Source of the DNA: Candidatus Babelota bacterium
Lineage (GTDB): Bacteria > Babelota > Babeliae > Babelales > Vermiphilaceae
Direction of reading: 5' to 3'
Assembly (NCBI GenBank): GCA_049325595.1
Contig: JBMOLF010000001.1
Span: 102,857 to 166,856, forward strand
Length of the DNA: 64,000 nucleotides
Shown here one piece after another: positions 1,682 through 31,496 of the stretch. Every line of letters begins with the position of its first letter. The first letter of the stretch is position 1. The notes under the pieces were generated by a model, which did not search any database, had not been told where the DNA came from, and saw only the letters and a program-made list of their open reading frames with translations. Made by a program: the position numbers and the translations under genes.

Positions 1682-1771
1682 TTCCATCCTTGAAAATAAC
1701 CGTAGGCATAAGATCAAGGGCAGTGTACTGATAAAAAAACAAAGAAGTTAACAATGTAATACAAATAATTA

Positions 1772-2549: not shown

Positions 2550-2578
2550 AAAAAGGTCCCTAGAGAAGGAACCTTTTT
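2550..2578 (-). terminator. Probable intrinsic terminator
   Basis: AAAAAGGTCCC...GGAACCTTTTT imperfect inverted repeat with A/T tracts, just downstream of 2610-3059. Confidence 0.5.
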
Positions 2579-2609
2579 ATAACATAAGAAAAAAAACAAA
2601 TTAACATTA

Positions 2610-3059: not shown

Positions 3060-3076
3060 AAGTTTTCTTTCATTAG

Positions 3077-3517: not shown

Positions 3518-3537
3518 GGTGGGTTTCTTTAAAAAAG

Positions 3538-3954: not shown

Positions 3955-4037
3955 AAGAAATTATATCGGCATTTATATATAACAAAATAAGATTGAACAA
4001 TTCTCAATTTATGAATGTCAGCTTAAATTAAAAATAT

Positions 4038-4376
4038 CTATGTAAAATTCTCATATTCTTTCCATTTTTCTTCTGGAATTAGCTTATTGTAAGATTGAAC
4101 AACATTTAAAATTAATTCATCGACATCCTCAAGAATTTCAGCAAGTGTCATTAACAGGAATCTCATATAGATTAAAATTAAAATCGCTTCAAAGCCATGT
4201 GTGCCTGGCAATGAATTTAACCTTTTACTAAGCAAATCCAGATAATCTTTTATAACTTCAAATTCTTGGAGACTTTTTTTTGTATTTTCTATCATCTCTA
4301 TTTGAATTGATTTTATTGGATTTAATTTATAAAGGTGCTCAATTTTTTGTAAAATTATTTTAGTTTCTTCAATCAT
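4038..4376 (-). CDS. Hypothetical protein, possible immunity/accessory gene
   Basis: 112-aa ORF overlapping the upstream ORF by 4 nt; no signal peptide. Confidence 0.5.
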   Translation of the reverse strand: MIEETKIILQKIEHLYKLNPIKSIQIEMIENTKKSLQEFEVIKDYLDLLSKRLNSLPGTHGFEAILILIYMRFLLMTLAEILEDVDELILNVVQSYNKLIPEEKWKEYENFT

Positions 4377-4951
4377 GACAATTTGCTCAAAGCTGCTTTA
4401 GTGTTTTTTATATCACATCCGCCGTCTACTTTTAGAATGATTTTTATTTCATTGTGTTTATTAAATACTTCAATTTTTCTTTCATCAATTTTTACATAAT
4501 CATTTTTTCTCAAGTAAATGTTTACTGATTGTTTTAATTGTAACTTTTTAGGATATTTACTTTTTATTAACAAATTATTTGATACAAGCTGATTAATAAA
4601 TTGAGATGAAATAACATCACAAAATAGTAATTCTTTTATATCATCTTTATGTTCAAAATTAACTTTTGGGAACTTAAGAACTATAGTATCAATGTAATTT
4701 GCGATATTACTTAATGTTGCTGCCATTGAACCATTAAGCGAATAAAATCTTACAAGTTCTAATATAATTGCCGGTAAATCATTTTTTATTAAGAATCGAT
4801 CAATTTTTTCATGACTTTCTTTAATCGCATCTTCTAAAATGGAAATTTCATTAGAATCAATTTCTTCAGTTATAGTTTTAGGAGAAATATTTAACTTAAA
4901 TGTCTTGTTAAGTTGCTCGACTGCTCGAGATAAATTATTAATGACGCACAT
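4373..4951 (-). CDS. Hypothetical protein, candidate immunity protein for the orphan toxin tip
   Basis: 192-aa ORF starting 4 nt after the stop of 4956-5231; no signal peptide. Confidence 0.5.
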   Translation of the reverse strand: MCVINNLSRAVEQLNKTFKLNISPKTITEEIDSNEISILEDAIKESHEKIDRFLIKNDLPAIILELVRFYSLNGSMAATLSNIANYIDTIVLKFPKVNFEHKDDIKELLFCDVISSQFINQLVSNNLLIKSKYPKKLQLKQSVNIYLRKNDYVKIDERKIEVFNKHNEIKIILKVDGGCDIKNTKAALSKLS

Positions 4952-4955
4952 TAAA

Positions 4956-5231
4956 TCATACCTTTATTGTTCGGCCCATCGCATTTTTTGCTTTTATGTA
5001 ATTAACTGTCCCATCCAGGTTTAAAACTGTTCTTGCAAAACCTCGCTTATCATAAACCTCAATGTGATCAAAATGAGTTTTATCGATATAATAATGAAAA
5101 CCTTTTTTTAGATCAGGATGTCCGAAATCTTTTTTTATTTTATATACGATTGATTCCTTAACAATAAGATGAGTTTTTTGGGAAAAGTCTTTTAACTTAT
5201 TGCCGAAATCAGTTTTAAAAAGTTCCTTCAT
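4956..5231 (-). CDS. Orphan polymorphic-toxin C-terminal tip, putative colicin E3-like/BECR RNase
   Basis: YYIDKTHFDHIEVYDKRG..VLNLDG motif (D-x2-H-x2-H-x-E-V-Y-D) typical of RNase toxin tips; no N-terminal stalk. Confidence 0.6.
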   Translation of the reverse strand: MKELFKTDFGNKLKDFSQKTHLIVKESIVYKIKKDFGHPDLKKGFHYYIDKTHFDHIEVYDKRGFARTVLNLDGTVNYIKAKNAMGRTIKV

Positions 5232-5379
5232 ATTTAGAACTTTGCTGTAACAAGTATTGCGTTATTTCCAGCATTCACTTATATAGTGCTTCCTGAATAA
5301 TTATCGAATGGGATAACCAAATACTTTGATTTATGACTTTTTTAATTTCGAATTTAATTTTAATTTAAAATAGACTCTT

Positions 5380-5417
5380 TATAACACATACCCTTATCTT
5401 AAGGCGTATGTGTTATA
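5380..5417. terminator. Long inverted repeat, probable terminator
   Basis: TATAACACATACCCTTA-TCT-TAAGGCGTATGTGTTATA, downstream of 5445-5777. Confidence 0.5.
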
Positions 5418-5444
5418 TGGGTATACTTTGTTGTTCTTTTAGTT

Positions 5445-5777
5445 TTATTCTTGGTTTGATAGATCAGCTTTCTGCATTTCTTGATATGAGCGCATTTTTT
5501 TTAAAAGCTCAGTAGTTCCGTGTAATAAAATAAAATCTTTAACAAATTCTGCACATTTTATAGGCAAATCTAACTGACTTAGCTCACTGCCCAAATTAAT
5601 CTTTAAACATTCATTAAGACTTTTTTCGATTTTTCTTTTTTCAATGTTTAGTTGTGCTTGTTGGTATGCATCTTCTTGAATAACACTATTTGTAGCATAA
5701 GATATTTTTGAATAGAACAATGCGTTGGTTGAATTTAGTAAAATAAATAAGAAATCGATAATGTTAATTTTTTTCAT
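5445..5777 (-). CDS. Small secreted two-Cys-motif protein (copy 3)
   Basis: KIEKSLNEC-x17-CAEFVKDFILLHG; MKK signal-like start. Confidence 0.65.
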   Translation of the reverse strand: MKKINIIDFLFILLNSTNALFYSKISYATNSVIQEDAYQQAQLNIEKRKIEKSLNECLKINLGSELSQLDLPIKCAEFVKDFILLHGTTELLKKMRSYQEMQKADLSNQE

Positions 5778-5824
5778 AATGAAATCCCTTTATATGGAGT
5801 TAAAATCTTTTTTGATCTACAAGA

Positions 5825-6580
5825 TTAGCTATATTTTTTCTGAACACGTTCAGTTAAAGAACCTTTTTCACGAGCTTCTCGTTTTAGTTCAATTAATTCA
5901 CATTCGTAATCTGAAAGGAATTCAGATTCTTTTAAAGGTTCAATTGAAGAAGTATTAACTTTATCTGCAATCTTCGCTACATGAATTATCTTATCCGTTG
6001 TAGGAAGATTTTTAAAATCATTGATATATTGTGTAGTAGCATCACGTGCAATATCAGCTGCTGACTTAGCGACTGTTATAATTGCAGGGGCTGCACCAGG
6101 AATCATTACTATGGCAACTCCTGTAGCGGCAACAGCGAACACACAACCTGATATTATTAGTGCCTTTTGAGATGATGACAGTTCACCACTAGCTGTCTCT
6201 TTTTCTTTTATTGTTTTAATTACATCTTTATATTCTTGAATAAGTTCATTTGCTTTTTGCGCACCTCCAGCAAGTTTAAATGCATTCAAACATTCTGAAC
6301 ATTTACCTGGAATATCGTCAATTGAGTCCCTTTTAGCATGAGTTACTAAACAATCAATAAAATTTTTTTCTAATTTGAGTAAGCGCGCTTGTTTTTTTAA
6401 TTCTGCAATGTCATCTTTATTATTAACCTGGATGACTTTGCCTCCAATTGCAAAAACATTACAAGTTGTGGCAGCTAATTTTCCTATTGCCTCTACTAAT
6501 TTGAGTTTGTCCCAAAGTGAATCATTGGGACTTGTAGTTTGATGAATAATTATAAAAATAGCTAAGAACGTCTTTTTCAT
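5825..6580 (-). CDS. Secreted two-Cys-motif protein with an extra Ala/Gly-rich hydrophobic segment (copy 2)
   Basis: KLEKNFIDC-x16-CSECLNAFKLAGG; hydrophobic ALIISGCVFAVAATGVAIVMIPGAAPAII. Confidence 0.65.
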   Translation of the reverse strand: MKKTFLAIFIIIHQTTSPNDSLWDKLKLVEAIGKLAATTCNVFAIGGKVIQVNNKDDIAELKKQARLLKLEKNFIDCLVTHAKRDSIDDIPGKCSECLNAFKLAGGAQKANELIQEYKDVIKTIKEKETASGELSSSQKALIISGCVFAVAATGVAIVMIPGAAPAIITVAKSAADIARDATTQYINDFKNLPTTDKIIHVAKIADKVNTSSIEPLKESEFLSDYECELIELKREAREKGSLTERVQKKYS

Positions 6581-7116
6581 TTTGGTCTAACTAGATAAAA
6601 ATCTGCACTTTTTTTCATACATTCTTTATTGCCAAGATAAAATGTAAATTGATCAATTAAATCTTTACAGGCTATGGGCATTTGAGTTGTTTCATCAAGC
6701 TCATCTGACTTATGCTGCAATAAACATTTATCCAGTAATACCTCAATTTCATATCCTCTAAGTCGTTTTTTTGCAAGCTCATTTCTTTCTTTTTGTTCTG
6801 GAGAGGGTCTTAACCAATTAATAAAACTTCCAATTGTAGCTCCAACCACTGAAAAATTTCTACCAATATTTGAGATACTTTCAACTGTTCCTACAACACC
6901 TTTTTGAACTGCATTAGCTATTTTTTCATTGCTATCAGCCGTTCGTTCTTGTGGCGTTTTTTCTGAGTTAGTATCGTGTGCTTGATTTTTTTGATTTTCA
7001 ACAATGTTTACATCATTCAAGTTAACTGTCTCAGAGGCTATTGAAATTTCATATGAAAGGCCGCTCAAAATAGCTATTAAAACCAGAAAAGTAATATTAT
7101 TTTTCATCAAGAACAT
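6577..7116 (-). CDS. Secreted two-Cys-motif protein (copy 1)
   Basis: EIEVLLDKC-x18-CKDLIDQFTFYLG; signal peptide; start may be 7107. Confidence 0.65.
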   Translation of the reverse strand: MFLMKNNITFLVLIAILSGLSYEISIASETVNLNDVNIVENQKNQAHDTNSEKTPQERTADSNEKIANAVQKGVVGTVESISNIGRNFSVVGATIGSFINWLRPSPEQKERNELAKKRLRGYEIEVLLDKCLLQHKSDELDETTQMPIACKDLIDQFTFYLGNKECMKKSADFYLVRPK

Positions 7117-7124
7117 CCTTTATT

Positions 7125-7607
7125 TTATTGTTTATTAAATGATTTGATCTCATTAACACAACTATCCCACTTAGCTAAAAATATACTTAGCAAATTTAGT
7201 TCATATCCTGTTCTAATAAATTGATAAATTAATAACTGCTTATCAAAGTCATCTAAATATTTAACTTCAACAAATTCGGTTATTAGCCTACACGTAAAAA
7301 TGCTTTGTTTTTCATTCACAAAATTATTCCATACTTTTTGAAGACAATCTTCAAAATCTTCCGCATATTGATCTGCTAATTTACTATTTGTCTCTTTACC
7401 AATAGCTACTAAAATTCTTTTTATTAATTTATCCCGTAGAAATTCATATTCTTTTCTAGCATCAGAAACAACTTTCTTTTGCTCAGTTATTTTTTTTCCT
7501 AAAGCTGATAATTCTTGGTATTTCTGTATTAACTGATCTGATGCGTTATCATTGCCGGAAAGAATAGAAGAAAAAATTAAAGAATAGACGATAAACCATT
7601 TCTTCAT
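7125..7607 (-). CDS. Hypothetical secreted helical protein
   Basis: MKKWFIVYSLIFSSILSG signal peptide, coiled-coil character. Confidence 0.6.
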   Translation of the reverse strand: MKKWFIVYSLIFSSILSGNDNASDQLIQKYQELSALGKKITEQKKVVSDARKEYEFLRDKLIKRILVAIGKETNSKLADQYAEDFEDCLQKVWNNFVNEKQSIFTCRLITEFVEVKYLDDFDKQLLIYQFIRTGYELNLLSIFLAKWDSCVNEIKSFNKQ

Positions 7608-7751
7608 AAGAAGTGATTCCCCCAAGGTGTATGGCTAAATAAATTACTGCTGATGCGGAATTATAAAAAAAATTTAATTAAATGTCTAACAAATAGATAA
7701 AATTTTCTCTTGTGAAATTTTTGAGCTAGGTAAGTGAATTTAATGTTTCAT

Positions 7752-8213
7752 TTATACAAAAACTGGCTTTAACCAGAGGGCTTGTAATTCGTTTTTTTCA
7801 ATTACCGCAACAACATTAGTGATAAATTCAACCGCTTGATTATTCTTAGTTGGATCGCCTACGCAAACCCAGCCTGACTGCTGATTATAATAAACTGGCC
7901 AATGAATGTTGTTTAATCTATAAGAAAACCCTGGTTCATAACTTTTTAAAACCTTTAATTGTCCCACCTCATAATTTGGCACAGGCAAATCTGTTAAAAT
8001 CCATTCGTGATTAGGGCAAAATCCATCAACTTGTACCACTAAATTATTTACCACCGTTAAATTTAAATAGTTTATAACTAAAACAAAATCAATTCTTGCA
8101 GTAAATGGTCTAATATTAAAAGAAAATTCATCAAATAAGTAAAATAATTTTCTTTGCTTTGCCTGTACAAATTCATCTTTAATTATGAATTCCATAAAAT
8201 CTTTATTGATCAC
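7752..8213 (-). CDS. Hypothetical protein, candidate orphan immunity protein
   Basis: 153-aa ORF coupled by a 4-nt overlap to the immunity-like array; GFCP..W, WPVYYN..SGWVCVGDP, ALWLKP; unrelated to its neighbours. Confidence 0.55.
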   Translation of the reverse strand: MINKDFMEFIIKDEFVQAKQRKLFYLFDEFSFNIRPFTARIDFVLVINYLNLTVVNNLVVQVDGFCPNHEWILTDLPVPNYEVGQLKVLKSYEPGFSYRLNNIHWPVYYNQQSGWVCVGDPTKNNQAVEFITNVVAVIEKNELQALWLKPVFV

Positions 8214-9013
8214 CTAGGATCCAGTGAAAGCTCAACAAAATCTAGTCCTTGGCATATTGAGGCTAATAAATCTAGATAGCGCCAATAATCAAAAACTACA
8301 TCAGGACCACTAAATATACGCTCTTGCTTCCAAGGAAAAAAAGCATTTGATATCTGCATGATTAATTCTTTATTCTCTGTATTAACGCAAATACCCATAA
8401 AAAAATAGGTGCCCTCACATTTGACATACAAATTATTACTCATCCGCTTTTCAATTTTTTCTATGATTTCTTGAACTGATAACAAGTAAGAATCACCGTA
8501 CCATTCGTCATTTTGATATTCAAAAAAATAACATTCTTGAACTTGAGCGTTAGAAACAATACTGTGTACAGTTTTTGTTAAATCTGCGTAATTAAACTTA
8601 AGAGAAATAGAATGAGTATTATCAGAATCAGAATTAAAAAAACTTTTAGAACTAATGCGTTTAACAGGCCCTATATAAAACTGCTCAATTTCAAAGTTAA
8701 TAGCTAATAGTAGCGCGTAAGAAAACATTAAATCTGTATTACAAATAAAATTACTTGGAATAAAACTCAATACAAGATGTTGCTTAATCAACTGCATTGA
8801 TAAATTAAAAAAAATATTGTTATGCGAAAGAATCAAAGTGGTACTTAAATCAGTTTTTATGATTTGTATAAGTTCATTTTTCCCCAAAAATATTATTTCT
8901 TTGTTTTCGTTATAAAATAAAAATTGATTCAGTAATAAATTTGCATGCAACCCATTTATAGATTCGCCAAAATCATCACGTACTTTTAATTTCATAAAAG
9001 CTGCATTAGTCAT
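8210..9013 (-). CDS. Two-domain immunity-like protein
   Basis: N-half resembles 9022-9408; C-half resembles 9405-9857 (FDYWRYLDLLASICQGL). Confidence 0.55.
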   Translation of the reverse strand: MTNAAFMKLKVRDDFGESINGLHANLLLNQFLFYNENKEIIFLGKNELIQIIKTDLSTTLILSHNNIFFNLSMQLIKQHLVLSFIPSNFICNTDLMFSYALLLAINFEIEQFYIGPVKRISSKSFFNSDSDNTHSISLKFNYADLTKTVHSIVSNAQVQECYFFEYQNDEWYGDSYLLSVQEIIEKIEKRMSNNLYVKCEGTYFFMGICVNTENKELIMQISNAFFPWKQERIFSGPDVVFDYWRYLDLLASICQGLDFVELSLDPR

Positions 9014-9021
9014 AACAATCC

Positions 9022-9408
9022 TTATTCATATGTTGGTAATGAATAATAGGGTTCTGTAAAAAATTCTTTTAAGAAAAAATTTTCGCATATAGCAAGTACA
9101 CATTTTATGTATAAAGATAAATCATTTTGCTGTTCTTTAAACTTTGGAATAGCACTAATAATTGTTTTAGATGTTTGATATTCAATACTAATGTCTAGAA
9201 AAACTGTTTTATATTTAATTGCTAATTTTATTAATCTGTTACTAAAAAAAAGATCGCAAAATTCAGTTGCTGAAATCTGAACAGCATGGTTAAAGCTAGG
9301 ATCATAAAAAGTTATTTTATTCATTAACATATTACCATACAAAGCTAGAGCAGCACTTTTTAAGTCATTAGCATCAACATAAGAATATATTTTATATTCG
9401 TTATTCAT
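9022..9408 (-). CDS. Immunity-like protein
   Basis: 4-nt overlap with 9405-9857; C-terminal NDLSLYIKCVLAICENF motif. Confidence 0.55.
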   Translation of the reverse strand: MNNEYKIYSYVDANDLKSAALALYGNMLMNKITFYDPSFNHAVQISATEFCDLFFSNRLIKLAIKYKTVFLDISIEYQTSKTIISAIPKFKEQQNDLSLYIKCVLAICENFFLKEFFTEPYYSLPTYE

Positions 9409-9857
9409 GATATGCTCTCTTTCATAATTCCAATTACAGCAAAATCATTACATAACTTAAGCATAATATTGATATAACGAGCAAAATCTAAACCATATGT
9501 GGGCAATCTTAAAAGAGGAATTAGACCGCTGTGAACAAACTCTACTTCCCAATTAATAAAATCGCTAAAAGTTATCTCGCACAAACCAGCATCAGTTTTG
9601 TTGATCCAGAATTTAAAAGCTGTATCTTTATAGCGAGTAAAAATTCCATAATATTCTATGTTACTATTTTCATCAAAGTTAATTATTCTTTCTGCAATCT
9701 CATCGGGACCAATTAATTTTGCAGCCTCATAACCTTCATTCCAAATATAATTATAATAAATAAAGCCAATTTTTAATCCCGACTCTGAAATTTTCTTAAT
9801 GTATTCCTGGTTATAAGAAAGATTAATCGTTGCACTAACTACATGCAATAAACTCAT
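9405..9857 (-). CDS. Candidate cognate immunity protein
   Basis: Starts 1 nt after the toxin stop; no signal peptide; C-terminal LDFARYINIMLKLCNDF motif. Confidence 0.6.
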   Translation of the reverse strand: MSLLHVVSATINLSYNQEYIKKISESGLKIGFIYYNYIWNEGYEAAKLIGPDEIAERIINFDENSNIEYYGIFTRYKDTAFKFWINKTDAGLCEITFSDFINWEVEFVHSGLIPLLRLPTYGLDFARYINIMLKLCNDFAVIGIMKESIS

Positions 9858-9858
9858 T

Positions 9859-12800
9859 TTATCCCTCTATGAAAGATATACCATTGTCATAAAACCATTT
9901 TTGCCAATGTTCTGGAATAGGCTGCTTGGAATGCACCTCAAACGTCTTTCCATAAGCACTCGCATTTTTTTTCTGCTCAATAAATCTACTTTTCATAGTC
10001 TGCATTTTTTTTGCAGTTATATTTTGCCAGTATCTATCTTTGCATTCTATTAACTTGGATAAAGTTTCTATATCAAATTCGCAAGTCTTATTCCCAGGAA
10101 GTTTTCTTCCAAAATAAACAACTTTTTCACCTTTTGATTCTAAGTTAAGAGCTTTTTCAAGTTCATAAATAGCACCCCTAGCGGTATTTAAATCATTACC
10201 ATCTAAAGTCTTGGTTGCCGTCTTTAAAATTTTATATAGGGGTCCATCTTTATTCCAAAAACTATTCACCTCTTTAAATAACCTTGCCCCATCAGTTACC
10301 TTCTCAACATTAATTATTGATTCCATCTCGAAATTTGTTAAATATTCTGAAACTGTTTTTAAATTTTTAAGAACAGCATTTATATGCTCTTCTAGCTGCT
10401 GATTAGTGACAACTAATTTACCTATGCTATTAGTTATCCTCTCAGCTTCCATGAACTGTGCTGGAATTTTACTTTCTACTGCAAATCCTTCAGCAGTTTG
10501 GGCTACCGCATTTACTTCTTTTAATTCGCGTAAAATATTTTCTGCTCGTGCAAGAGCCACTTGTATTGCAGGAGACGTTGCATTAAAAATTACTCCCAAT
10601 CCCTGATCGATCAATAATCCTTCAGTAACCATTCTGCCTATTAACTTTGCTTTTTCTTGTACGGGTAGTTCGGCTAATGCAATCATAGTTTTGGCAAGAT
10701 TGATTCCATCTGTACCAACTCTATTGCAAAGACTATTTAATTTTGCAGCACATTTTTCTAAATCATCCTGCAACACTATGTCAGCCAAATCCAATAAAAT
10801 ATCTGCGGTATATACAAAAGGTTTTATAAATCCTTCAGTTGCATTGAGCACAAACTGTTCTGGATTTTTTGCAATCTCGCTACCTAACTCTGAACCTTCT
10901 CTCACCGCCAACCACGCACATTCAGCCGCCAGTTTTTCATTGTTATACAATTCAGTTATAAAAGTGCTTGGAATCTCAGATAAAAGACGATTAAGACAAT
11001 CGTCAATAAGCACATTTTTATTGTGCACCTTTAAATCTTGGTAAGAAGCTTTTGATTCATAATCACTGAGTATTTGAATTGTTTGCTTTAATGTATGGGC
11101 AATTGATGAGCCTAATGGATTAATAACACGCGCTGTATCAGAAAAAACAATATTTTCAGTAACTACATAAAGCTTGTGGGCCACATTTTGCGCAGAATAA
11201 GCAACTTGATTAAAACAATGTTCTAATGAATGTCCTACATATTTTGATACTGTTTGGCCATATTCAAACAAAGACCAGCAAAAATCCGCTAAACTAAGTG
11301 CTTTAGAGGCATGCCCTTCTAAATTTACTTTTGCGGTATGCAATAAATAATCAGCAATCTTACTATGCAGCGTTTTATCATAATCTGAGGCTGTCTTTTT
11401 AAATGATAATTCTGAAACCTTATTAAAGAGTTCAACAACCTCAGTATGTACAACTTGCTGAATTGCGTTACCAATACAATATTCTAAAACTCTTTGATTT
11501 TCTTTTTTTTGATTAAGCAACCATTTTGATTCTAAGCTAAGTTCATAATTTTGTTCGTAAACAATAGAACCATGCTCTTTAATAAAATTTAATGCTTCTT
11601 CTCGGCGGGTTACAATAAACTCCGCTTGCTTGTTATTTTCAGATAAGACAAGTGGTGCTACTTGTTCATACTTATCTAGTTGCGCCTTGCAGTCATTAAA
11701 ATTTTGTTCTATTAAGTTAGTTATCTCATTTCTTAAAGAAGAATCTATATGGTAATTATATTTTTTTTGATGCTTACTTAAATTAACAAATCTGGCGATA
11801 ACCGGCGCATTATAGGAATAATCCCATTGAGGAATTTTATTATCAGATTCCTCTATTTTAGGTAATCCATTAATAGTCAATTCATTTTTCACCAAATTTT
11901 GTTCAGCAATTGTAGCCTGTGGCGATGAAGCTTGAGCAATCAAACTATCTTGGTCATTAACTGCAATTGCCTGCTTAGCATTTAAGTTGTTCTCTGATGC
12001 TAAAGATTCAGTTTTATTTTTTTTCAACCCTGAAATTATACGATTGTAAGGCAACAGACTTTCGCTATTTTTTAGATAGTCGGCAGCTTCATTTGATTTA
12101 TTATTTTCTGCTAATTTTATGAGATGGCCAAGTTTTTGATTTACCTCATTAGCTTGTACTTTTTTTAAAAAGGTTTTGGGAGTACAACCACGTTGTAAAT
12201 TTTTTATACCATTTATAATCTGTTGCGAACTGCTTTTTGCACACTGGTAGGCCTGTCCAATCCCACCTTCGGTTTTTATTGTATTTAAAATACTGGTACG
12301 TGAATTAATATCATTTACTATAGTCGATTTAAAATTATCAGTATTGATCGATAACAAAGTGTCATACCACTCTGCTGGACTTCCTGAAATTGTCTTGCAA
12401 AAATCGGCACAAATTTGCGTTATTAATTGTCTGTCATTGCTAGAAAGATCTACCTTAATTGTTGCATCCGGAGCGCATGCGACTAAACTAAGCTTTTCTT
12501 TTATTGGTATCCATTGCTGATTATAGCTGGTATTATTTATGGAGCTATGCAATAACTCATGAATAGCTTTTACCGTTGAAAAACTATTATTACTTTCAAG
12601 CAAAGTTTTAAAGTTTGTTTTAATAGATTCAATAGCATTGAGTGTGGCAACATCACAAAGATTTTTTTGAATCGGAACATTAACTAATAATTGAACAGGA
12701 TTATCAGATAAATAAGGATTTAATTCTGATGCGAGTTTCTTTTCAGAACTATAAAGATATAACGATTGTCCCTCATTCCAATGCTGATTAAGAATAGGAT

Positions 12801-13080
12801 TATTTCGATAGAGTGGAATAACATCTAATGCTTTTCCATTACCCCACTCTATTTCATGATATTGCTTATATGCGCTATAGTTTTCCATACGATTAAAACT
12901 ACTATTAAGAGATTTTGATCGTTGATCATAAACAATATCATTTTGTTTAGAGGCAATTTCTACATAGGGTTTGGAAGTAGTACATTTTTGTACATTACTA
13001 AAGTGCGCAATAGGCACTGGAACATCTTTATATGAACCCCAGATTGGCAACGTTATGCATAATACTATTAAAAAAAACAT
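9859..13080 (-). CDS. Large Sec-signal protein with C-terminal PD-(D/E)xK (restriction-endonuclease-fold) domain, putative polymorphic toxin
   Basis: 1073 aa; hydrophobic N-terminus; C-terminal RGAIYE...EFDI...LIECK...F.EQK motif series. Confidence 0.7.
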   Translation of the reverse strand: MFFLIVLCITLPIWGSYKDVPVPIAHFSNVQKCTTSKPYVEIASKQNDIVYDQRSKSLNSSFNRMENYSAYKQYHEIEWGNGKALDVIPLYRNNPILNQHWNEGQSLYLYSSEKKLASELNPYLSDNPVQLLVNVPIQKNLCDVATLNAIESIKTNFKTLLESNNSFSTVKAIHELLHSSINNTSYNQQWIPIKEKLSLVACAPDATIKVDLSSNDRQLITQICADFCKTISGSPAEWYDTLLSINTDNFKSTIVNDINSRTSILNTIKTEGGIGQAYQCAKSSSQQIINGIKNLQRGCTPKTFLKKVQANEVNQKLGHLIKLAENNKSNEAADYLKNSESLLPYNRIISGLKKNKTESLASENNLNAKQAIAVNDQDSLIAQASSPQATIAEQNLVKNELTINGLPKIEESDNKIPQWDYSYNAPVIARFVNLSKHQKKYNYHIDSSLRNEITNLIEQNFNDCKAQLDKYEQVAPLVLSENNKQAEFIVTRREEALNFIKEHGSIVYEQNYELSLESKWLLNQKKENQRVLEYCIGNAIQQVVHTEVVELFNKVSELSFKKTASDYDKTLHSKIADYLLHTAKVNLEGHASKALSLADFCWSLFEYGQTVSKYVGHSLEHCFNQVAYSAQNVAHKLYVVTENIVFSDTARVINPLGSSIAHTLKQTIQILSDYESKASYQDLKVHNKNVLIDDCLNRLLSEIPSTFITELYNNEKLAAECAWLAVREGSELGSEIAKNPEQFVLNATEGFIKPFVYTADILLDLADIVLQDDLEKCAAKLNSLCNRVGTDGINLAKTMIALAELPVQEKAKLIGRMVTEGLLIDQGLGVIFNATSPAIQVALARAENILRELKEVNAVAQTAEGFAVESKIPAQFMEAERITNSIGKLVVTNQQLEEHINAVLKNLKTVSEYLTNFEMESIINVEKVTDGARLFKEVNSFWNKDGPLYKILKTATKTLDGNDLNTARGAIYELEKALNLESKGEKVVYFGRKLPGNKTCEFDIETLSKLIECKDRYWQNITAKKMQTMKSRFIEQKKNASAYGKTFEVHSKQPIPEHWQKWFYDNGISFIEG

Positions 13081-13098
13081 AGCTAACTTATTCCACTC

Positions 13099-14424
13099 TT
13101 AAATTTTCTCTTTTTTTAAATCCTGTAAATAATTTATGGTCTTTGTATCGCTCTTAATCAATGATTTATTGTCCTGCCAAGCCAATACTTTGTCTTTCAA
13201 TTTTTCATCACTGTATATCTGCAAATTATTATGAAAATTCGATTGTTCGAGCTGATGATTAAAGCTTTGTTGTTGCAAATTTAATTGAGTATCAAACTGA
13301 TTTGATTGAGTTCTTAACTGTATATAAAAGTTGCGTTGATTTAAATATAAGTTAAGAATCGATATTACTGTTGGTAATCCCTGAGTAATAAATATTCTCA
13401 TACCTGGTTTTATTTTTTGGTATAAGTTACCAAACCAGTCATTCCATGTGTTCCAATTTTTGATGAGACGCTCAAAATCTTGCTCTTGAATAACAATATC
13501 TGTTTTGTTTCTAATCTTGGCGTTACGTGCAGCTTGCTTAACTAAACGATCTAGCATTCTTAAAGGTTTACCCTTAGTTCGGTGGGCTATGTAATCTATA
13601 TATTTATCATTGATTTTATACGGAATACTAAGAGCAGCTAGGTGATACCTTATCGCCTCTTTACGCGAATTATAACTTGACTGACCTAATGTGATAATAT
13701 CAAAATCAATAAAACGTGTTTTTATAGGTGATGGCAAATCTTGAAAAGCTTTGTTAGAAGTACCAATAAAAAACACATTTCCATATTTATTACAATCATC
13801 AAGCATTGTCCAAAATTTAGCAACCGCAGCTTTATCTTGTTTATTATCAGCTTCAGCCAAATCGGTAATCTCAGTAAATTCATCCAAAATCAAAACACAA
13901 TCTGTTTGAGTCTTAAACAAAGTATGAAATAAATGGTTTATATTTTCAGCTCCAGAATGTTTGTACTTATCAAGTAAATCAGGAGCTCTTTCTAGTCTAT
14001 ACCTTCTTTTTGTTACTTTTGCTATAGCCATAGCCAAGCTAGTCTTACCCATTCCAGGTTCTCCTAAAAGCAACATTCTATCGGGCAATAAATCTCTGGA
14101 AATTGGATCTATTAAACTATCAACAATGTCCTCAACCTCAGCAGGAGCCGAATCTATTAATTTTTTAGCAAAATCATCACTTATAGAGTGAATATCATCA
14201 TTGAATATATTATTTTGGTTAAATTTTAAAGAATATGTCTTAGTGCTCTCTTCAGTATCTTCATCAATATAAATAATTGGTTTTTTTGTAATAACCCTGT
14301 CAACAAGATCATTTACTCGTATAGATGTGCGCGTATTGTTGATAGTTTCCTGGCAATAGAGGTTACTTGATAAGCTTATGCTGATAAATATATTAAAAAG
14401 AATTACACTTATATTATTCTTCAT
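13099..14424 (-). CDS. AAA+ ATPase (classic clade) with N-terminal signal-like peptide
   Basis: Walker A GEPGMGKT, Walker B LILDE, sensor TSN, TRF arginine finger, pore-loop KYKHSG. Confidence 0.85.
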   Translation of the reverse strand: MKNNISVILFNIFISISLSSNLYCQETINNTRTSIRVNDLVDRVITKKPIIYIDEDTEESTKTYSLKFNQNNIFNDDIHSISDDFAKKLIDSAPAEVEDIVDSLIDPISRDLLPDRMLLLGEPGMGKTSLAMAIAKVTKRRYRLERAPDLLDKYKHSGAENINHLFHTLFKTQTDCVLILDEFTEITDLAEADNKQDKAAVAKFWTMLDDCNKYGNVFFIGTSNKAFQDLPSPIKTRFIDFDIITLGQSSYNSRKEAIRYHLAALSIPYKINDKYIDYIAHRTKGKPLRMLDRLVKQAARNAKIRNKTDIVIQEQDFERLIKNWNTWNDWFGNLYQKIKPGMRIFITQGLPTVISILNLYLNQRNFYIQLRTQSNQFDTQLNLQQQSFNHQLEQSNFHNNLQIYSDEKLKDKVLAWQDNKSLIKSDTKTINYLQDLKKEKI

Positions 14425-14445
14425 GTTGCAGCACCCTTTGATGTC

Positions 14446-15495
14446 TCATGCGTGATCATTCATCCAGCGCTCATATCTTCTATCGGCTTTAATGGTGTAG
14501 TACAAATTAATCATTGAAAATAAGATGGGTGGACCATATATAAGCACATCTCTTATAGTAAATTTATTTTTATTAATAAATTCTTTTAACGAAAATGATT
14601 TTTTACTTTCATGCAAGGCACGTAAAAAGTCATTTTTTGTAATTATGCTTCGTGGATTTTTATAATGCGCATACTGCGCCGCTCGTATAATTACGGATTC
14701 AATTTCACGAATAGACATTCCCGCAGTTTTTGTTGCAAGCCACCGACATTCCGATCGCGTCCAATCTTTAGTAATTTGACCTAAATAAAATGCGATTATT
14801 TCTACCCTATTGTCATAGTCAGGTAGATTTATGGGAACAATAAAACCTTCAAATCTACTTTTTAAAGGTCCAGGAATATCGTTAAGATCATTAGCAGTTG
14901 CAATAAAAAAGATATTTGGATTTTGAGCGCATCGATCGAGCAACAACCACAGCGCCTCAAGTAACCCTGGATCAATATCCTGTCCCTCTTTTTTATTTTT
15001 GAAAAATACATTGATTTCATCGATAATAATGGTCATTTTTTGATTTGATTCTAAAATTTCACCAAATATTTTTAATAAATTTTGAGGACCGGAATGTTTA
15101 TATTCATTGGCAACAAAAGGTGCTTCTATCACTATATAATCTGCCTCAAGCATATGTCCTATCGCTTTTGCTAATGTTGTTTTCCCACATCCAGGAGGAC
15201 CAACCAATAAAAGCCTTTTAGGTTTTGCCTTTGCATATATTAATGGATAACGAAGATTATAAATAATTTGTTTAAGTCGTTCAGACATTTGCTTTTGAAC
15301 TAGAGAAAGCAACAAACTATCTTCTTGCTGATCACTACAATACGCACTATCCTCAATAGGAATTTTTTTGATATTTTTATCGACTAATTCAGCTACAGAT
15401 TTTGGTTTTTCTTCTGAATTAGGTACAATATTATTAAAATAGAAAGACAACAGAATAATTATTAAGTAGCAAACATTAAAATGGACTTTTCTCAT
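14446..15495 (-). CDS. AAA+ ATPase (classic clade) with N-terminal signal-like peptide, paralog of 13099-14424
   Basis: Walker A GPPGCGKT, Walker B IIIDE, TAN, SRF, pore-loop EYKHSG. Confidence 0.85.
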   Translation of the reverse strand: MRKVHFNVCYLIIILLSFYFNNIVPNSEEKPKSVAELVDKNIKKIPIEDSAYCSDQQEDSLLLSLVQKQMSERLKQIIYNLRYPLIYAKAKPKRLLLVGPPGCGKTTLAKAIGHMLEADYIVIEAPFVANEYKHSGPQNLLKIFGEILESNQKMTIIIDEINVFFKNKKEGQDIDPGLLEALWLLLDRCAQNPNIFFIATANDLNDIPGPLKSRFEGFIVPINLPDYDNRVEIIAFYLGQITKDWTRSECRWLATKTAGMSIREIESVIIRAAQYAHYKNPRSIITKNDFLRALHESKKSFSLKEFINKNKFTIRDVLIYGPPILFSMINLYYTIKADRRYERWMNDHA

Positions 15496-15729
15496 AAATT
15501 CTCATAAAAATAGCTCGAAACTTTTTTTTGACCGCTAAAACTAACATAAAATTATGGGAATCTCAATCTAAAATTTGCCATATTTGACTTTTTGAAAATA
15601 TTTTGCTTATCCTAAAATGTAGTAATAGACAAAATTTATAAGAATGATACAACATTATTCATTACTTTTAACAATTAATAGACGGCTCGAGTTTATAACA
15701 ACTGGTTGAAGAGATCGAAAGTAGTAGCC

Positions 15730-17985
15730 ATGAAAAAATTGCTGATAGTAGAGTCACCAGCAAAAATTAAAACGATATCCAAGTTTTTGGGCAAAGATTT
15801 TAAAATTATGTCCACTATGGGACATGTTAAGGATCTGCCTGCCAAAAAAGTTGGTGTTACACTTTCTGATGATGCTATCGATATTGAATATGTTGCTATT
15901 CCTGATAAAGAAAAGACCATTGCAGAAATTTGCAAAGCGGCCTCTTCTGCTGACGAAATTTATTTAGCGCCCGACCCTGACCGTGAGGGTGAAATTATCG
16001 CATGGCATATTGAGCAAGAAATAAAAAAAGTTGCCAAGAAAAAAGCGAAAATTCATCGTATTACCTTTAACGAAATTACCAAATCAGCCGTTACTGAGGC
16101 AATTGAAAATCCTTTTGAGGTGGATTTACAAAAAGTAGCTGCTCAACAAGCACGCCGTGTGCTTGATCGTTGGGTGGGTTATGAAGTTTCACCTATTTTA
16201 TGGACTAAACTAGCACCGGGTCTTTCTGCTGGTCGTGTGCAATCAGTTGCTTTGCGCTTAATTTGCGACCGTGAAGAAGCAATTCGTAGCTTTAAACCAG
16301 AAGAATATTGGACCATTGCAGGAATTTTTTCCGGTGATCATGGCAAAATAGAAGCAGCATTAACTCATATTGGTAAAGAAAAGGCCGAAATTAGCAGTAA
16401 ACAACAAGCTGATGAATTAGTAAAAAAATTAAAAGCTGCCTCATATGAAATAGAAAGTATTACTGATAAAGAGCGTCTTAAAAATCCGTACGCTCCTTTT
16501 ATGACCAGTACTTTACAGCAAGCGGCATTTAACCAGCTTGGTTTTTCGGTTAAAAAAACTATGCAACTTGCCCAACAATTGTATGAGGGTATTCCGCTCG
16601 ATGATCCAAAAAGCCCGATCGCGCTCATTACTTATATGCGTACCGACTCACTACGTTTATCAGACACCGCTATTAAGCAAGCACGAGATTTTATTAGCGA
16701 TCATTTTGCCAAAGATTACCTGCCAAAAACGGCTATGGTATATGAAAAATCAAAAGGTAAAGCAAAAACCCAAGATGCGCACGAAGCAATCAGGCCTATT
16801 GATGCCAACATTACTCCTGAACGTGCTGGTCGTTATTTACCAAAAGATCTTGCCAAATTATATGAACTTATTTGGAAACGTTATATTGCCTGCCAGATGA
16901 AGCCGGCAGTATATGCTCAGCGCCAAGTAGTTATTAAAGGTGATAAATATCTTTTTAAAGTTACTGGTTCTACCTTAATTTTTGATGGGTTCTTAAAAGT
17001 ATATTCTGGTGATGAGGAAGAAGAAAAAGAACAAAAAGTAGTTATTCCTCATGGCATAAAAGCAAAAGATCCTTTAGATCTTGAAAAAATTAATCCAAAA
17101 CAACATTTTACCCAACCGCCTCCAAAATATACCGAAGCTTCGTTAGTAAAAGAAATGGAAAAAGAAGGTATTGGACGCCCAAGTACGTATGCTACCATTA
17201 TGAATACCATACGGGCACGTGCTTATACCACGCTTGATTCAAAAAAACGTTTTACCCCAACTGAACTTGGTATGACGGTAACCAAACTCTTAACAGAAAA
17301 TCTTCCGCATATCATGAATATTAAATTCACCGCATTAATGGAAGAAGATCTTGATAAAATAGCGCAGGGCGAGTTCCAACGCGATGAATTGTTGCGTGAA
17401 TTTTATAAAAATTTCCAAGAAGATATTGCCCTTTTTAAAGGAAAAGATGGTAAACGTATTGCTGAGCCTACCGATATTACCTGTCCTAAATGCAATGAAG
17501 GTAAACTGGCTATTCGTTTTGGTAAAACAGGCGAATTTTTAGGATGCATGCGTTACCCCGATTGCGATTTTACTTCTAATTTTAAGCGAAATGAACAAGG
17601 TATTATTGAATTAGTTAAAGCTGAACCATTAGTAGTATTGGATGAGCCCTGTCCATTATGTGGTAAACCATTACGCCAGGTAAATGGCAAATTTGGCCCA
17701 TTTATTGCCTGCTCTGGTTACCCTGAATGCAAATATATCCATCAAGTTAAAGCTAGTTTCCCCTGCCCGGTTGACGGCGGTGAAGTAGTGCAACGGCGTT
17801 GGCGCGGTGGTACCTTCTGGGGTTGTGGCAATTATCCAAAATGTAAGTTTGCCGTATTTGGTGATATTGAAGAAATACCATGCCCAAATTGTTCTTTGCC
17901 ATTTTTAGTAAAAAAAGTTGATAAAGAAGGTAAAGTTACCCTCTTTTGCTCAGACAAAAAATGTGGCTATACCAAAGAAGAATAA
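15730..17985 (+). CDS. topA: DNA topoisomerase I
   Basis: LLIVESPAK, DPDREGE, SAGRVQS, ITYMRTDS, QDAHEAIRP, GIGRPSTY; C-terminal C4 zinc ribbons. Confidence 0.97.
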   Translation: MKKLLIVESPAKIKTISKFLGKDFKIMSTMGHVKDLPAKKVGVTLSDDAIDIEYVAIPDKEKTIAEICKAASSADEIYLAPDPDREGEIIAWHIEQEIKKVAKKKAKIHRITFNEITKSAVTEAIENPFEVDLQKVAAQQARRVLDRWVGYEVSPILWTKLAPGLSAGRVQSVALRLICDREEAIRSFKPEEYWTIAGIFSGDHGKIEAALTHIGKEKAEISSKQQADELVKKLKAASYEIESITDKERLKNPYAPFMTSTLQQAAFNQLGFSVKKTMQLAQQLYEGIPLDDPKSPIALITYMRTDSLRLSDTAIKQARDFISDHFAKDYLPKTAMVYEKSKGKAKTQDAHEAIRPIDANITPERAGRYLPKDLAKLYELIWKRYIACQMKPAVYAQRQVVIKGDKYLFKVTGSTLIFDGFLKVYSGDEEEEKEQKVVIPHGIKAKDPLDLEKINPKQHFTQPPPKYTEASLVKEMEKEGIGRPSTYATIMNTIRARAYTTLDSKKRFTPTELGMTVTKLLTENLPHIMNIKFTALMEEDLDKIAQGEFQRDELLREFYKNFQEDIALFKGKDGKRIAEPTDITCPKCNEGKLAIRFGKTGEFLGCMRYPDCDFTSNFKRNEQGIIELVKAEPLVVLDEPCPLCGKPLRQVNGKFGPFIACSGYPECKYIHQVKASFPCPVDGGEVVQRRWRGGTFWGCGNYPKCKFAVFGDIEEIPCPNCSLPFLVKKVDKEGKVTLFCSDKKCGYTKEE

Positions 17986-17988
17986 ACT

Positions 17989-18666
17989 TTAGAACTCCAT
18001 GGTATCTAAGAAAAATTCATTAATTTCTTTATCAACATATTGAGAGAATTTCTCGCTCAATATTTGTTGAAAGTCTTGTATTGTTTGTTTTTCAAACTGC
18101 CCCTGTATGCGCTTAACACAGGGAGCGGGATGAATCTCAAGCCGCGTATCAAAGCTTAATCCCTTATCTTTGCTAAGATACACAGATAAACCACAATTCC
18201 CCATGCGCATTAACCAATTGAAGGGTAAATATTTAATTGGCAAGGCATCTACGGTTGATTTATTTTTGTTGTTCAAATAATTGTATTCACAAGTCTGAAT
18301 ACCATTATGAGCATATGACTTGTAATACACAAATACCGGAACCATGTAATCATTAATTAGATTATTATTATCACAATCATCAATTTTAATAGTGGTAGAT
18401 AATTTTTCATTCTCTTGAAAATTTTTAAATGGGTACCATTGGCTATCTCTCACTAAGACATAGGCTTGTAATTCTTGTGCTCGTTTTCTTATTTTATGTT
18501 CCGGGCCCATTTCATGATAATAATCATCATGCGTTCTTTTCTTGCCTGAAAAACAATGACTCCGAATAAGTTGTTTCTTGTTTTCTTCAATACAACAATA
18601 ATCTATATCCATAGTTAACAAGGGAACATTGTTGAACGCGAAAAGAAATATCAAATATTTTTTCAT
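17989..18666 (-). CDS. Hypothetical secreted protein, paralog of 19126-19974
   Basis: Signal peptide then MDI; shares LxAY, MVPV and YLP motifs with 19126-19974. Confidence 0.6.
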   Translation of the reverse strand: MKKYLIFLFAFNNVPLLTMDIDYCCIEENKKQLIRSHCFSGKKRTHDDYYHEMGPEHKIRKRAQELQAYVLVRDSQWYPFKNFQENEKLSTTIKIDDCDNNNLINDYMVPVFVYYKSYAHNGIQTCEYNYLNNKNKSTVDALPIKYLPFNWLMRMGNCGLSVYLSKDKGLSFDTRLEIHPAPCVKRIQGQFEKQTIQDFQQILSEKFSQYVDKEINEFFLDTMEF

Positions 18667-19151
18667 AGATTAGATTTTTTAAAAATTAATATCCATTGAT
18701 TTCCATACAATCCTGAACCAATGCCCACTGGTTCAAAGCCTGCTTTGAGCAATGCCTTATAGCTTCGCGGATTTTCGCAATATACGCGTGCGGTAAATTC
18801 TGTTAACCCCGTTTCATTAAAGTAAATAGTAGCAGTTTTTTTTATGGCTTCTTGAAGGTATCCTTTACCCCAATATTGCTTGTTGATCCAGCAATAGAGT
18901 TGGCCTGGGTTTTCATCGGGAAGTCGTATTTGTATCGCACCAACATATGCATTTTCTTTTGGTGCATAAATCAAATAAAAAAAAGTTGGAATACCACGTT
19001 CTTTTCGGGTTAAACAAAGCTCAAGATATGCTTCTTCATCTTCCCAACAAGCAACCTGCAAATAAGGCCACAAGTTGGGTTCAAAAAGTTTTTTATAAAT
19101 AGCAATATGCGAATAATCAAGATCTTTAAGTTCTACCATGTGCTTCATCAA
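18663..19151 (-). CDS. GNAT (RimJ/RimL-type) N-acetyltransferase
   Basis: WINKQYWGKGY acetyl-CoA motif; ENPRSYKALLKAGF. Confidence 0.85.
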   Translation of the reverse strand: MMKHMVELKDLDYSHIAIYKKLFEPNLWPYLQVACWEDEEAYLELCLTRKERGIPTFFYLIYAPKENAYVGAIQIRLPDENPGQLYCWINKQYWGKGYLQEAIKKTATIYFNETGLTEFTARVYCENPRSYKALLKAGFEPVGIGSGLYGNQWILIFKKSNL

Positions 19152-19974
19152 CCCTAGGAGAAGAAAGAGAAATAACCGAAAGATCGGGCAAATATTCTTC
19201 TGCGCCCTCCATCATCATACTCATATCTTCTTGATTTGCATTGTTGGTTTTGACCTTATATACGTGTTCAAAAATATGCTGGGAAAATCCTAATTTTTTT
19301 TGCGCCGGGATCAACCATAATGGTATGTCTTTACGTTCAACACTTGCAGGCAAGAAAATCTCAAACGGCTCATCTTCCCGTAATAAAGACACAAAGCTTT
19401 CTGGTAAATAGGTTATTTTCAAGGGGTGGTGTTTACCATCTTCTGGTGAAAAACCAAAATAATTTAAATTGATCTTTTTGCCACAAAACATCTTTGAAAG
19501 TGCTGATAGGCAAACAGGTACCATTACCGTATCTCCCGACAATAAGGCACCAAGAGCACAAACCAATTCCTCTTTATTTTCAAGTTCTTTTAAAAGACAA
19601 ATTGGTTTATCTTCTTTTATCGCTATATAAGCTTCAAGATGCGCACAGTTATTATGTTTTCCCCAAGGCAGAATACCTTCATGAACAATTTTGCGTTTTT
19701 TAGTTGGTCCACCTAATTCGTTTGATGCAGCTCTTTTAAAACCAGTATGCTTTTCTAATTTTACTTTTTTTTGAGCAGCAAATGCGTGGTCATCGGTCAC
19801 TTTTCTTTTAACACCTTGTTTTTTTGATTGAGTAGCAACAAAAAATACCGGAGCGCTTTTACGAGCTTGCGCAATGCATAATGGTATTCCCTGGTGCTCA
19901 TCAACCATTTCAATGTCCATAGCTAGTGCCGATGTTATAGAAAAAAGAATGAGAAAAGCAAAAAGCATCATCAA
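19126..19974 (-). CDS. Hypothetical secreted protein with NLS-like basic clusters
   Basis: Signal peptide ALA-MDI; KRKV...KKVK and KRAASNELGGPTKKRKI. Confidence 0.6.
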   Translation of the reverse strand: MMMLFAFLILFSITSALAMDIEMVDEHQGIPLCIAQARKSAPVFFVATQSKKQGVKRKVTDDHAFAAQKKVKLEKHTGFKRAASNELGGPTKKRKIVHEGILPWGKHNNCAHLEAYIAIKEDKPICLLKELENKEELVCALGALLSGDTVMVPVCLSALSKMFCGKKINLNYFGFSPEDGKHHPLKITYLPESFVSLLREDEPFEIFLPASVERKDIPLWLIPAQKKLGFSQHIFEHVYKVKTNNANQEDMSMMMEGAEEYLPDLSVISLSSPRVDEAHGRT

Positions 19975-31399: not shown

Positions 31400-31496
31400 T
31401 CTGTGCGATACTTTTTTTGTTAATTTTTGATTGTTATTAGTGCAAACTATAACCAGTGTAACAAAAAAAATATTTACGTCAGCCAATGGAATTAAG

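Follow-up and report, generated by a model that had tools for sequence, protein, structure and literature searches.

The stretch of DNA analysed here, referred to below as the window, comprises 64,000 nucleotides of Candidatus Babelota bacterium (Vermiphilaceae; GenBank assembly GCA_049325595.1, contig JBMOLF010000001.1, positions 102,857 to 166,856), an amoeba-parasite-type bacterium. It includes two adjacent genes for AAA+ ATPases, AAA_B and AAA_A, located directly upstream of the gene for a polymorphic toxin. The two proteins are members of one family, have intact catalytic residues, carry hydrophobic features at the N-terminus and towards the C-terminus, and are linked to a toxin with which they are co-inherited. 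We favour, at a probability of about 0.45, a reading in which they are unfoldases, exported by Sec and anchored on a membrane, that work for the toxin cassette outside the cytoplasm with ATP from the host. The features on which the argument depends are as follows.

2560-15535, all genes (-): variable island of ~13 kb, absent from G001, a genome of the same genus, and of lower G+C content
14446-15495 (-): AAA_B, 349 aa, the first gene of the island, with a classic AAA domain
13099-14424 (-): AAA_A, 441 aa, with an intact AAA domain
9859-13080 (-): polymorphic toxin, 1073 aa, with a hydrophobic N-terminus, a shared middle domain and a C-terminal nuclease domain of the restriction-endonuclease fold
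9405-9857 (-): candidate cognate immunity gene, 150 aa, overlapping the toxin stop and without a signal-like N-terminus

The genes are closely spaced, with 21 bp between AAA_B and AAA_A and 18 bp between AAA_A and the toxin gene. An earlier note on this DNA, made from the letters alone, had described AAA_A and AAA_B as paralogous classic-clade AAA ATPases with an intact Walker A and B, sensor Asn and Arg finger, two shared motifs, similar late helices and a short basic and hydrophobic N-terminal peptide, and all of these are present in the translations. Both match the Pfam AAA model (PF00004, E 1.6e-21 for AAA_B and 1.2e-20 for AAA_A) and they share 28 % identity over 247 residues (E 9e-31) in an alignment that spans the P-loop to the late hydrophobic helix. 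The Walker A motifs are GEPGMGKT and GPPGCGKT, the Walker B motifs LILDEF and IIIDEI, the sensor Asn motifs GTSN and ATAN, and the Arg finger motifs KTRF and KSRF; AP-x5-YKHSG-x2-N is common to both, and the late helices are QGLPTVISILNLYL and YGPPILFSMINLYY. The N-terminal linkers contain LVDRVITKKPI and LVDKNIKKIPI (shared pattern LVD[RK]xIxKxPI), a similarity that falls at the 93rd percentile of linker pairs taken from different loci and, alone, is not clearly above chance.

The overall layouts are also alike. AAA_B starts with MRK and an uncharged run of 24 residues followed by EE, and continues with a short linker, the AAA domain, a helix at residues 317-335 and a basic tail of 16 residues. 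AAA_A starts with MK and an uncharged run of 23 residues followed by E, and has a linker of ~90 residues, the AAA domain with the hydrophobic helix ~223 residues past Walker A, and an 81-residue Q/N-rich tail. Hydrophobicity was scanned on the Kyte-Doolittle scale over 19 residues with a threshold of 1.3, and also over 17 residues. The N-terminal peaks were 1.65 (AAA_A) and 1.83 (AAA_B) over 19 residues; the late helix reached 1.36 in AAA_B and <1.3 in AAA_A over 19 residues, and 1.3 and 1.4, respectively, over 17 residues. An AlphaFold2 (AF2) model of AAA_B (predicted local distance difference test, pLDDT, 87.6) has the AAA fold, a helical lid and a long C-terminal helix (311-348), with the hydrophobic segment lying within the helix that leaves the lid. 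Foldseek searches with this model gave Rpt, Vps4, p97, i-AAA and FtsH as top matches (E about 4e-13 to 1e-12), and the best solved relative by sequence is the D1 domain of p97/VCP (E 5e-31).

This generic AAA domain and these solved relatives are what can be said for an ordinary housekeeping AAA (FtsH, PAN/Cdc48-like or Vps4-like) that adjoins a toxin by chance, an explanation that we consider very improbable. Pfam scans of the two proteins found no Peptidase_M41 and no protease, N-domain or second ring, and no curated NCBIfam subfamily fits, the scores of ~47-64 bits comparing with cut-offs of 500-1008. Membership of PAN (64 of 500), FtsH (47 of 600) and CDC48 (62 of 803) was rejected, as was that of CdvC and IteA, for which the scores were also far under the cut-offs. 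A Bcs1 N-domain was not detected by Pfam or NCBIfam, and Pfam gave no Torsin match. When the genome to which the window belongs (1.29 Mb, 95 % complete) was searched with a model of the family, four clear members (the two in the window and one each on contigs C11 and C23) scored 280-537 bits and three divergent members in tandem on contig C12 scored 91-104 bits, and the genome's own FtsH (605 aa), at 82 bits, lies below all seven. The family is also patchily distributed, and its genes are missing from this site in G001, neither of which suits a housekeeping role. The earlier note had raised the prospect that these proteins cluster with ordinary AAA families unlinked to toxins, and this is contradicted by the low NCBIfam scores and by the recurrent toxin linkage described below.

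The family is found almost only in the Dependentiae and is thus phylum-specific. Matches at E 1e-20 or better are present in 50 of 261 genomes of the phylum, representing 29 of 145 genera, often with several per genome. In the protein collection searched, AAA_B has 34 matches at E 1e-23 or better, the next matches being at E 3e-13, where PAN, Cdc48 and FtsH begin; those few members that carry a name come from metagenome bins of Dependentiae or Babeliales. In an alignment of 55 family sequences, G99, G102, G104, K105, E160, N202 and R214 are invariant and D159 is present in 52. The single Arg finger, R214, is preceded by K in 37. The pore-loop aromatic is Y in 45 and F in 10, and is followed by K/Q/R, N/H and S-G in place of the hydrophobic-Gly pair; a phmmer alignment puts the Y opposite the Trp of p97 D2. 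Some members depart from the usual layout. One of 894 aa (L036:4863-7547(+)) is a fusion of a signal peptide, ankyrin repeats (Ank_2, E 4e-43), the AAA domain and the helix, and in two giant forms, of 1506 aa (L062:8545-13065(-)) and 1175 aa (L068:8499-12026(-)), the AAA domain is far from the N-terminus and AAA_lid_3 is matched.

Short/long paralogue pairs have been kept through speciation in two lineages of the family tree. A simple scheme, in which 'short-tail' and 'long-tail' AAAs form two ancient clades each contributing one member per cassette, was rejected, as the tree needs 18 label changes; from the tree, such pairs appear to have arisen several times. AAA_B groups with the copy on contig C11, and AAA_A lies on a long, unplaced branch. 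Locus-specific N-terminal linkers shared between co-located paralogues gave only a weak signal, with just 4 of 15 pairs above the 97th percentile and the window pair, as noted above, below it. Two family members that lie beside active paralogues (L032:5029-6003(-) and L026:13274-14407(-)) no longer have Walker A, Walker B or the sensor Asn and probably serve as ring subunits without catalytic activity; the co-location of such dead paralogues with active ones suggests mixed rings. As short/long pairs persist and some partners are catalytically dead, it is plausible that the two window AAAs work as a pair.

The 1073-aa protein encoded next to AAA_A is, by comparison with a sister strain, a polymorphic toxin whose C-terminus is exchanged. 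Its middle domain covers ~126 residues (504-629) and its nuclease domain residues ~960-1073. The last ~240 residues are 32 % identical to the end of a toxin in a genome of another genus (G210) that has an unrelated stalk, and the same C-terminus was found on three unrelated stalks in all (G210 and two further). A motif, E154, D184 and E193-x-K195 (numbering of alignment A3), is invariant in all five sequences. The AF2 model of the C-terminal core (pLDDT >90) has the order alpha-beta-beta-beta-alpha-beta, and Foldseek places PD-(D/E)xK nucleases, including a CdiA-CT, on top (E 2e-4 to 1e-2); the atlas leads were Tox-REase families (0.85-0.89). A Pfam scan of this protein gave no toxin family and no Tox-REase model at E 0.01 or better, and hence its identity is drawn from fold and motif. 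In a sister strain, the homologue (P0121) is the same toxin to about residue 885 and then has a different C-terminus; the 158-kb contig of that strain, from another study, is collinear with the window except that 9913-10440 is replaced by 2783 letters.

The gene that follows the toxin co-varies with this C-terminus. The genes located after the window toxin and after the G210 toxin are also homologous, the 150-aa window protein sharing 29 % identity (E 9e-12) with the 141-aa product of the gene after the G210 toxin, which has the same C-terminal domain. The 150-aa gene is accordingly presented as a candidate immunity gene. A protective role for the AAAs themselves, namely that they are exported and unfold or remove incoming or mislocalised toxins at the envelope of the producer as an adjunct to the immunity genes, would fit their presence in, and co-inheritance with, the same cassette, and they are optional in the way that accessory immunity functions often are. 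The position of the AAA genes, which in most loci are upstream of the toxin and apart from the immunity array, argues against it. So does the sister strain, which retains an AAA_B (P0001) that is 97 % identical to that of the window, with both the C-terminus of the toxin and the DNA that follows replaced. We consider a protective role improbable.

The remaining features of the island relevant to toxins and to small membrane proteins are the following.

7752-9408 (-): three small open reading frames (ORFs) of 128, 267 and 153 aa, tightly packed and without signal-like N-termini
4956-5231 (-): orphan toxin C-terminal fragment, 91 aa, 51 % identical to residues 935-1007 of a 1018-aa toxin in genome G136
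4373-4951 (-): 192-aa ORF, noted for its position after the orphan toxin fragment
2610-3059 (-): 149-aa signal-bearing ORF with a weak match to a small membrane partner family

The 128-, 267- and 153-aa ORFs had no match in a Pfam scan and, from their position, may be orphan immunity genes. Two small paralogous ORFs that also lie inside the island (3538-3954(-) and 5445-5777(-)) are 47 % identical over 68 residues; together with the orphan toxin end and the 192-aa ORF, they are the usual debris of toxin-end displacement.

The extent of the island was defined by comparison with G001, in which the orthologues of window 1064-1717 and 1772-2503 are directly joined to topA. Because G001 runs from these orthologues straight to topA, ~2560-15535 is a 13-kb island in the window genome, with AAA_B as its first gene; the DNA upstream of topA in G001 starts to align ~40 bp upstream of the AAA_B start codon. 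The G+C content is 0.27-0.34 inside the island and 0.38 at 16001-18000. No tRNA and no flanking direct or inverted repeats were found at the borders. Scans for promoters and terminators told little in DNA so rich in AT (63 promoter-like sites, 78 being expected), and only a terminator-like 12-bp hairpin at 2578-2550 stood out. RNA evidence was looked for over window 9800-15600, and none was listed. G001 itself holds a complete cassette with the order AAA (404 aa), AAA (368 aa), toxin (764 aa) at another site (L070, C1:529000-548900), and at that site the window genome keeps only a 218-aa signal-bearing AAA remnant (C15:99487-100143). Judged from these two sites, the island has apparently been gained or lost as one block between congeners, and the cassettes seem to be gained, and to decay, quickly.

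The partner family, to which the 149-aa ORF may be related (hidden Markov model E 2.8e-5; hhalign probability 62 %, E 7.7e-5 over 42 columns, a weak match), consists of proteins of 175-219 aa with a signal-like N-terminus, a (K/E)WL..QY motif, two predicted membrane helices and a C-terminal R-D-x-x-M/I-L helix. Membership of the ORF at 3077-3517 was rejected (E 0.37). In the window genome, arrays of 1-6 copies lie beside AAA genes on three contigs (C12:8981-16050, C23:17855-20784 and C11:276-2166, corresponding to L002, L003 and L011), and in three further loci (L048, L060 and L064) partner genes lie between the AAA and toxin genes.

The pairing of AAA and toxin genes is not confined to this site. 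An ORF of at least 500 aa that belongs to a toxin cluster lies within 5 kb of 53 of 68 family AAA ORFs, in 33 of 45 loci, covering 17 genera and 4 families by genome labels, and the toxin is usually directly downstream of the AAA genes on the same strand. All three full-length toxins found in the window genome have family AAAs nearby. Among 34 large toxin-cluster proteins scanned with Pfam, five had matches above the cut-off (EndoU in four, Ntox35 in one) and five more had matches below it, and neighbouring genes matched CdiI_ImmP in two loci and DUF2247 in one. EndoU toxins are present in 91 of the 261 genomes and occur together with the AAA in 27 (hand count). When the 36 EndoU matches listed in genomes with both features were considered, 12 were within 10 kb of an AAA match and ~1-2 were expected by chance; this is a hand count on the best 150 of 218 EndoU matches with a rough chance estimate, and the related genomes are not independent. 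The linkage to toxins implied in the earlier note is therefore borne out, both by the polymorphic nuclease toxin downstream and by the adjacency in other loci.

Features bearing on location were scored over the 68 family ORFs from 45 loci. A hydrophobic uncharged run is present near the N-terminus in 64, with a median length of 17 residues (interquartile range 16-19); K or R immediately precedes the run in 61, and an acidic residue immediately follows it in 47. This arrangement appears to be that of a Sec signal peptide, and the run has the length of a signal peptide rather than that of an anchor. By the positive-inside rule, this pattern would place the domain after the peptide outside the cytoplasm. 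A signal-like peptide is absent from all 11 housekeeping cytoplasmic proteins of the window, and from the other AAA+ ORFs of the genome (two of Lon size and one of 344 aa), and it is present in leucine-rich repeat (LRR), ankyrin and many unknown proteins; in the genome's FtsH the anchor is followed by Arg. The second hydrophobic feature, a 17-mer that begins 200-250 residues past Walker A (median 225), is found in 46 of the 64 ORFs that have a Walker A motif. Some members end shortly after this helix, and others extend with a Q/E-rich tail and further Gly/Ala-rich hydrophobic segments.

Other proteins of this genome have N-termini of the same kind. The signal-like peptides very often end in a small residue, Met and Asp/Glu (..SSA-ME.., ..NYA-ME.., ..ALA-MD..), examples in the window being 48436-50010(-), 54833-55369(-), 19126-19974(-) and 17989-18666(-). 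Among the 527 ORFs scored as signal-like genome-wide, the last uncharged residue is Met in 74 and small-M-[DE] occurs in 62, the overall frequency of Met being 2.2 % of residues; such an ending might be a cleavage or sorting motif specific to the phylum, or the trace of a second start codon. A thioredoxin reductase-thioredoxin fusion (window 3-1067(+), C1:102499-103923) has a peptide of basic and hydrophobic residues at its start. Signal-like N-termini were also seen on further P-loop (GxxxxGK[ST]) proteins, encoded at C15:130764-131546, C15:203762-204631, C11:37187-38959, C12:28747-30303 and C15:95834-97534, and export of nucleotide-binding proteins may be a more general feature of this genome. 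The window also includes genes for an Omp85/BamA homologue (28481-31486(-)), a type IV prepilin peptidase (40701-41213(+)) and a pilin-like protein (42302-42778(-)); the bacterium has an outer membrane and components of a pilus or type II-like secretion system.

An ATPase outside the cytoplasm requires ATP there, and the textbook view is that Gram-negative bacteria move proteins beyond the inner membrane without ATP, since the periplasm has none. The earlier note took the same premise; it need not hold in this bacterium, because the genome has two genes for TLC-type ATP/ADP translocases, from which the presence of ATP outside the inner membrane, in the periplasm, would follow. Import of ATP from the host is described by Deeg 2019 (PMC6561590) for Chromulinavorax destructans.

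In the reading that we favour, AAA_B and AAA_A would together form the motor of a mobile and self-contained polymorphic-toxin cassette found in the Dependentiae, made up of AAA genes, toxin and immunity genes in that order, with small membrane partners in some loci. The AAA domain would be exported through the Sec-type signal peptide and held on a membrane by the helix that comes right after the AAA lid, and, outside the cytoplasm, would hydrolyse ATP derived from the host cell, which would be available there as the bacterium imports ATP through its ATP/ADP translocases. In classic-clade rings, the end after the lid lies on the substrate exit face. The exit face of the ring would thus point at the membrane, and, with the anchor at this end, the ring would push polypeptide towards its own membrane and act as a translocase, not as an extractase. 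Acting together, the two paralogues would most likely unfold the nuclease toxin encoded next to them and thread it to, or through, a membrane, which could be the outer envelope or belong to the host. We infer the export and topology, the source of the ATP, the orientation of the ring, the toxin as its substrate and the mixed ring of paralogues from the features described above.

Several findings weigh against this reading. The late helix of the window AAAs is only moderately hydrophobic (1.3-1.4), and the counts of K/R that flank the post-AAA helix across the family give no consistent orientation. The call of export is made from heuristic residue features, and a loose version of the heuristic is satisfied by 527 of the 1233 ORFs of the genome, a high base rate, albeit one that agrees with the signal peptides reported on 44 % of coding sequences in Chromulinavorax destructans (Deeg 2019, PMC6561590). 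The 44 regions around AAA matches were fetched down the E-value ranking and from longer contigs and are a non-random sample. Of the 45 AAA loci, 12 are without a toxin within 5 kb. Conversely, 64 of the 91 EndoU genomes are without an AAA match at the E 1e-20 threshold. When 16 EndoU loci away from strict AAA matches were considered, 12 had no AAA within 10 kb, the remaining four having divergent signal-bearing AAAs, and the toxins of these loci carry the same middle domain. On these genome counts the AAA is an optional accessory and no general requirement, being dispensable for toxins of the same kind. Finally, a periplasmic ring that is anchored in the inner membrane with its exit face to that membrane pushes its substrate the wrong way for export, and the model therefore needs a further target membrane. 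This wrong-way push keeps two rival readings alive, each of which we regard as unlikely.

According to the first, the AAAs are host-directed effectors that are secreted, insert in a host membrane by the C-terminal helix and remodel host proteins with host ATP, toxins being nearby since effector genes gather in variable islands. Signal peptides of this kind are also carried by the LRR and ankyrin proteins of the window, Deeg 2019 (PMC6561590) reports nucleases and ankyrin proteins that are secreted, and one family member is the ankyrin fusion described above. The modest hydrophobicity of the helix is what is expected of a segment that has to escape the bacterial inner membrane, and the AAA loci that lack a nearby toxin are readily accommodated. 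However, the same-strand order of AAA then toxin, with gaps of ~20 bp, recurs in 17 genera, gain and loss of the two as one block exceeds co-residence in an island, and the retention of dead paralogues beside active ones suggests a dedicated machine.

According to the second, the AAAs are unfoldases on the cytoplasmic side of the inner membrane, docked there by the C-terminal helix, the N-terminal peptide being an uncleaved or a reverse anchor, and they strip the immunity protein from the toxin, unfold the toxin and feed it to an export channel, possibly with the two-helix partners. ATP supply would then be no problem, and substrates would be driven outward by a ring with its exit face at the inner membrane. 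A nuclease toxin is co-produced with an immunity protein that binds it tightly, and arrays of two-helix partners lie beside AAA genes on C12, C23 and C11. Here the difficulty is the N-terminus, as the frequency of K/R before the run and of acidic residues after it (61 and 47 of 68) puts the domain outside by the positive-inside rule, and a median run of 17 residues is short for a membrane anchor. In addition, the toxins have signal-like N-termini of their own and so should use Sec.

Returning to the exported, anchored unfoldase, the closest precedents among toxin systems are the AAA+ proteins of toxin injection systems tabulated by Zhang et al. 2012 (PMC3482391), ClpV of the type VI secretion system and the CDC48-like AAA of the Photorhabdus virulence cassette. 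Like the window proteins, these are AAA+ ATPases encoded with polymorphic toxins and immunity genes. They are, however, cytoplasmic, have two rings or a Clp-type build and no signal peptide, and recycle a phage-tail-like apparatus, whereas the window AAAs have a single AAA domain, a signal-like N-terminus and a C-terminal membrane helix. No phage-tail family was found among the part of the AAA-locus neighbours that was scanned. As far as the tabulation of Zhang et al. 2012 (PMC3482391) goes, the AAA+ proteins of polymorphic toxin systems are known only to recycle injection machines from the cytoplasm.

The window AAAs also resemble membrane-held classic-clade rings that thread their substrates via an aromatic pore loop. 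FtsH, Msp1/ATAD1 and Bcs1 are anchored by N-terminal helices, have the entry face at the membrane, and extract or import proteins. In the window family the lid comes before the conserved anchor and the peptide at the N-terminus resembles a cleavable signal, and so the earlier note's comparison to Bcs1 and Msp1, which are N-terminally anchored, holds in concept only. FtsH has, in addition, two N-terminal membrane helices and a C-terminal M41 protease, which the window AAAs lack, and the genome has a separate FtsH.

Among eukaryotes, PTEX and the torsins are known examples of AAA+ motors that are exported. In PTEX (HSP101 with EXP2), a signal-bearing AAA+ unfoldase outside the parasite cytoplasm pushes exported proteins into the host cell. 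The window AAAs are alike in concept and function only, as HSP101 is a ClpB-type eukaryotic double ring that is not itself membrane-anchored, and no pore partner has been identified for the window AAAs. Torsins are AAA+ proteins of the endoplasmic reticulum lumen that, like the window AAAs, combine a signal peptide with an ATPase domain in a secretory compartment. They have no arginine finger and depend on an activator, whereas R214 is invariant in all 55 sequences of the window family. A literature search, supplements excluded, found nothing that joins the Dependentiae with polymorphic toxins and no periplasmic or extracytoplasmic AAA by name, the matches to 'secreted AAA' being unrelated by title. 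Deeg 2019 (PMC6561590), its supplement aside, does not mention AAA or toxin.

The most far-reaching version of our reading, a bacterial AAA+ translocase beyond the cytoplasm that is Sec-exported, anchored at its exit face and, alone or with partners, moves nuclease toxins through the outer membrane or one of the host at the expense of host ATP in the periplasm or the host-facing space, is doubtful. If true, bacteria would have their own equivalent of the malaria PTEX, and the rule that Gram-negative bacteria cannot power extracytoplasmic transport with ATP would have an exception. The premise of an ATP-free periplasm fails for obligate energy parasites, whose inner-membrane ATP/ADP translocases need ATP outside, and a conserved family of export-tagged AAAs linked to toxin cassettes would be the first sign of such bacteria using host ATP for mechanical work outside their own cytoplasm. 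The modules known from polymorphic toxin systems would also gain one with a trafficking or accessory role. The recurrence of the motor-plus-toxin pairing across the phylum suggests that toxin delivery has a helper, not yet described, that may be powered by host ATP. Dependentiae export ~44 % of their proteins, and this AAA family offers a handle on how those proteins reach their hosts; even on the tamest reading, it is a phylum-specific AAA family with a clear genomic partner.

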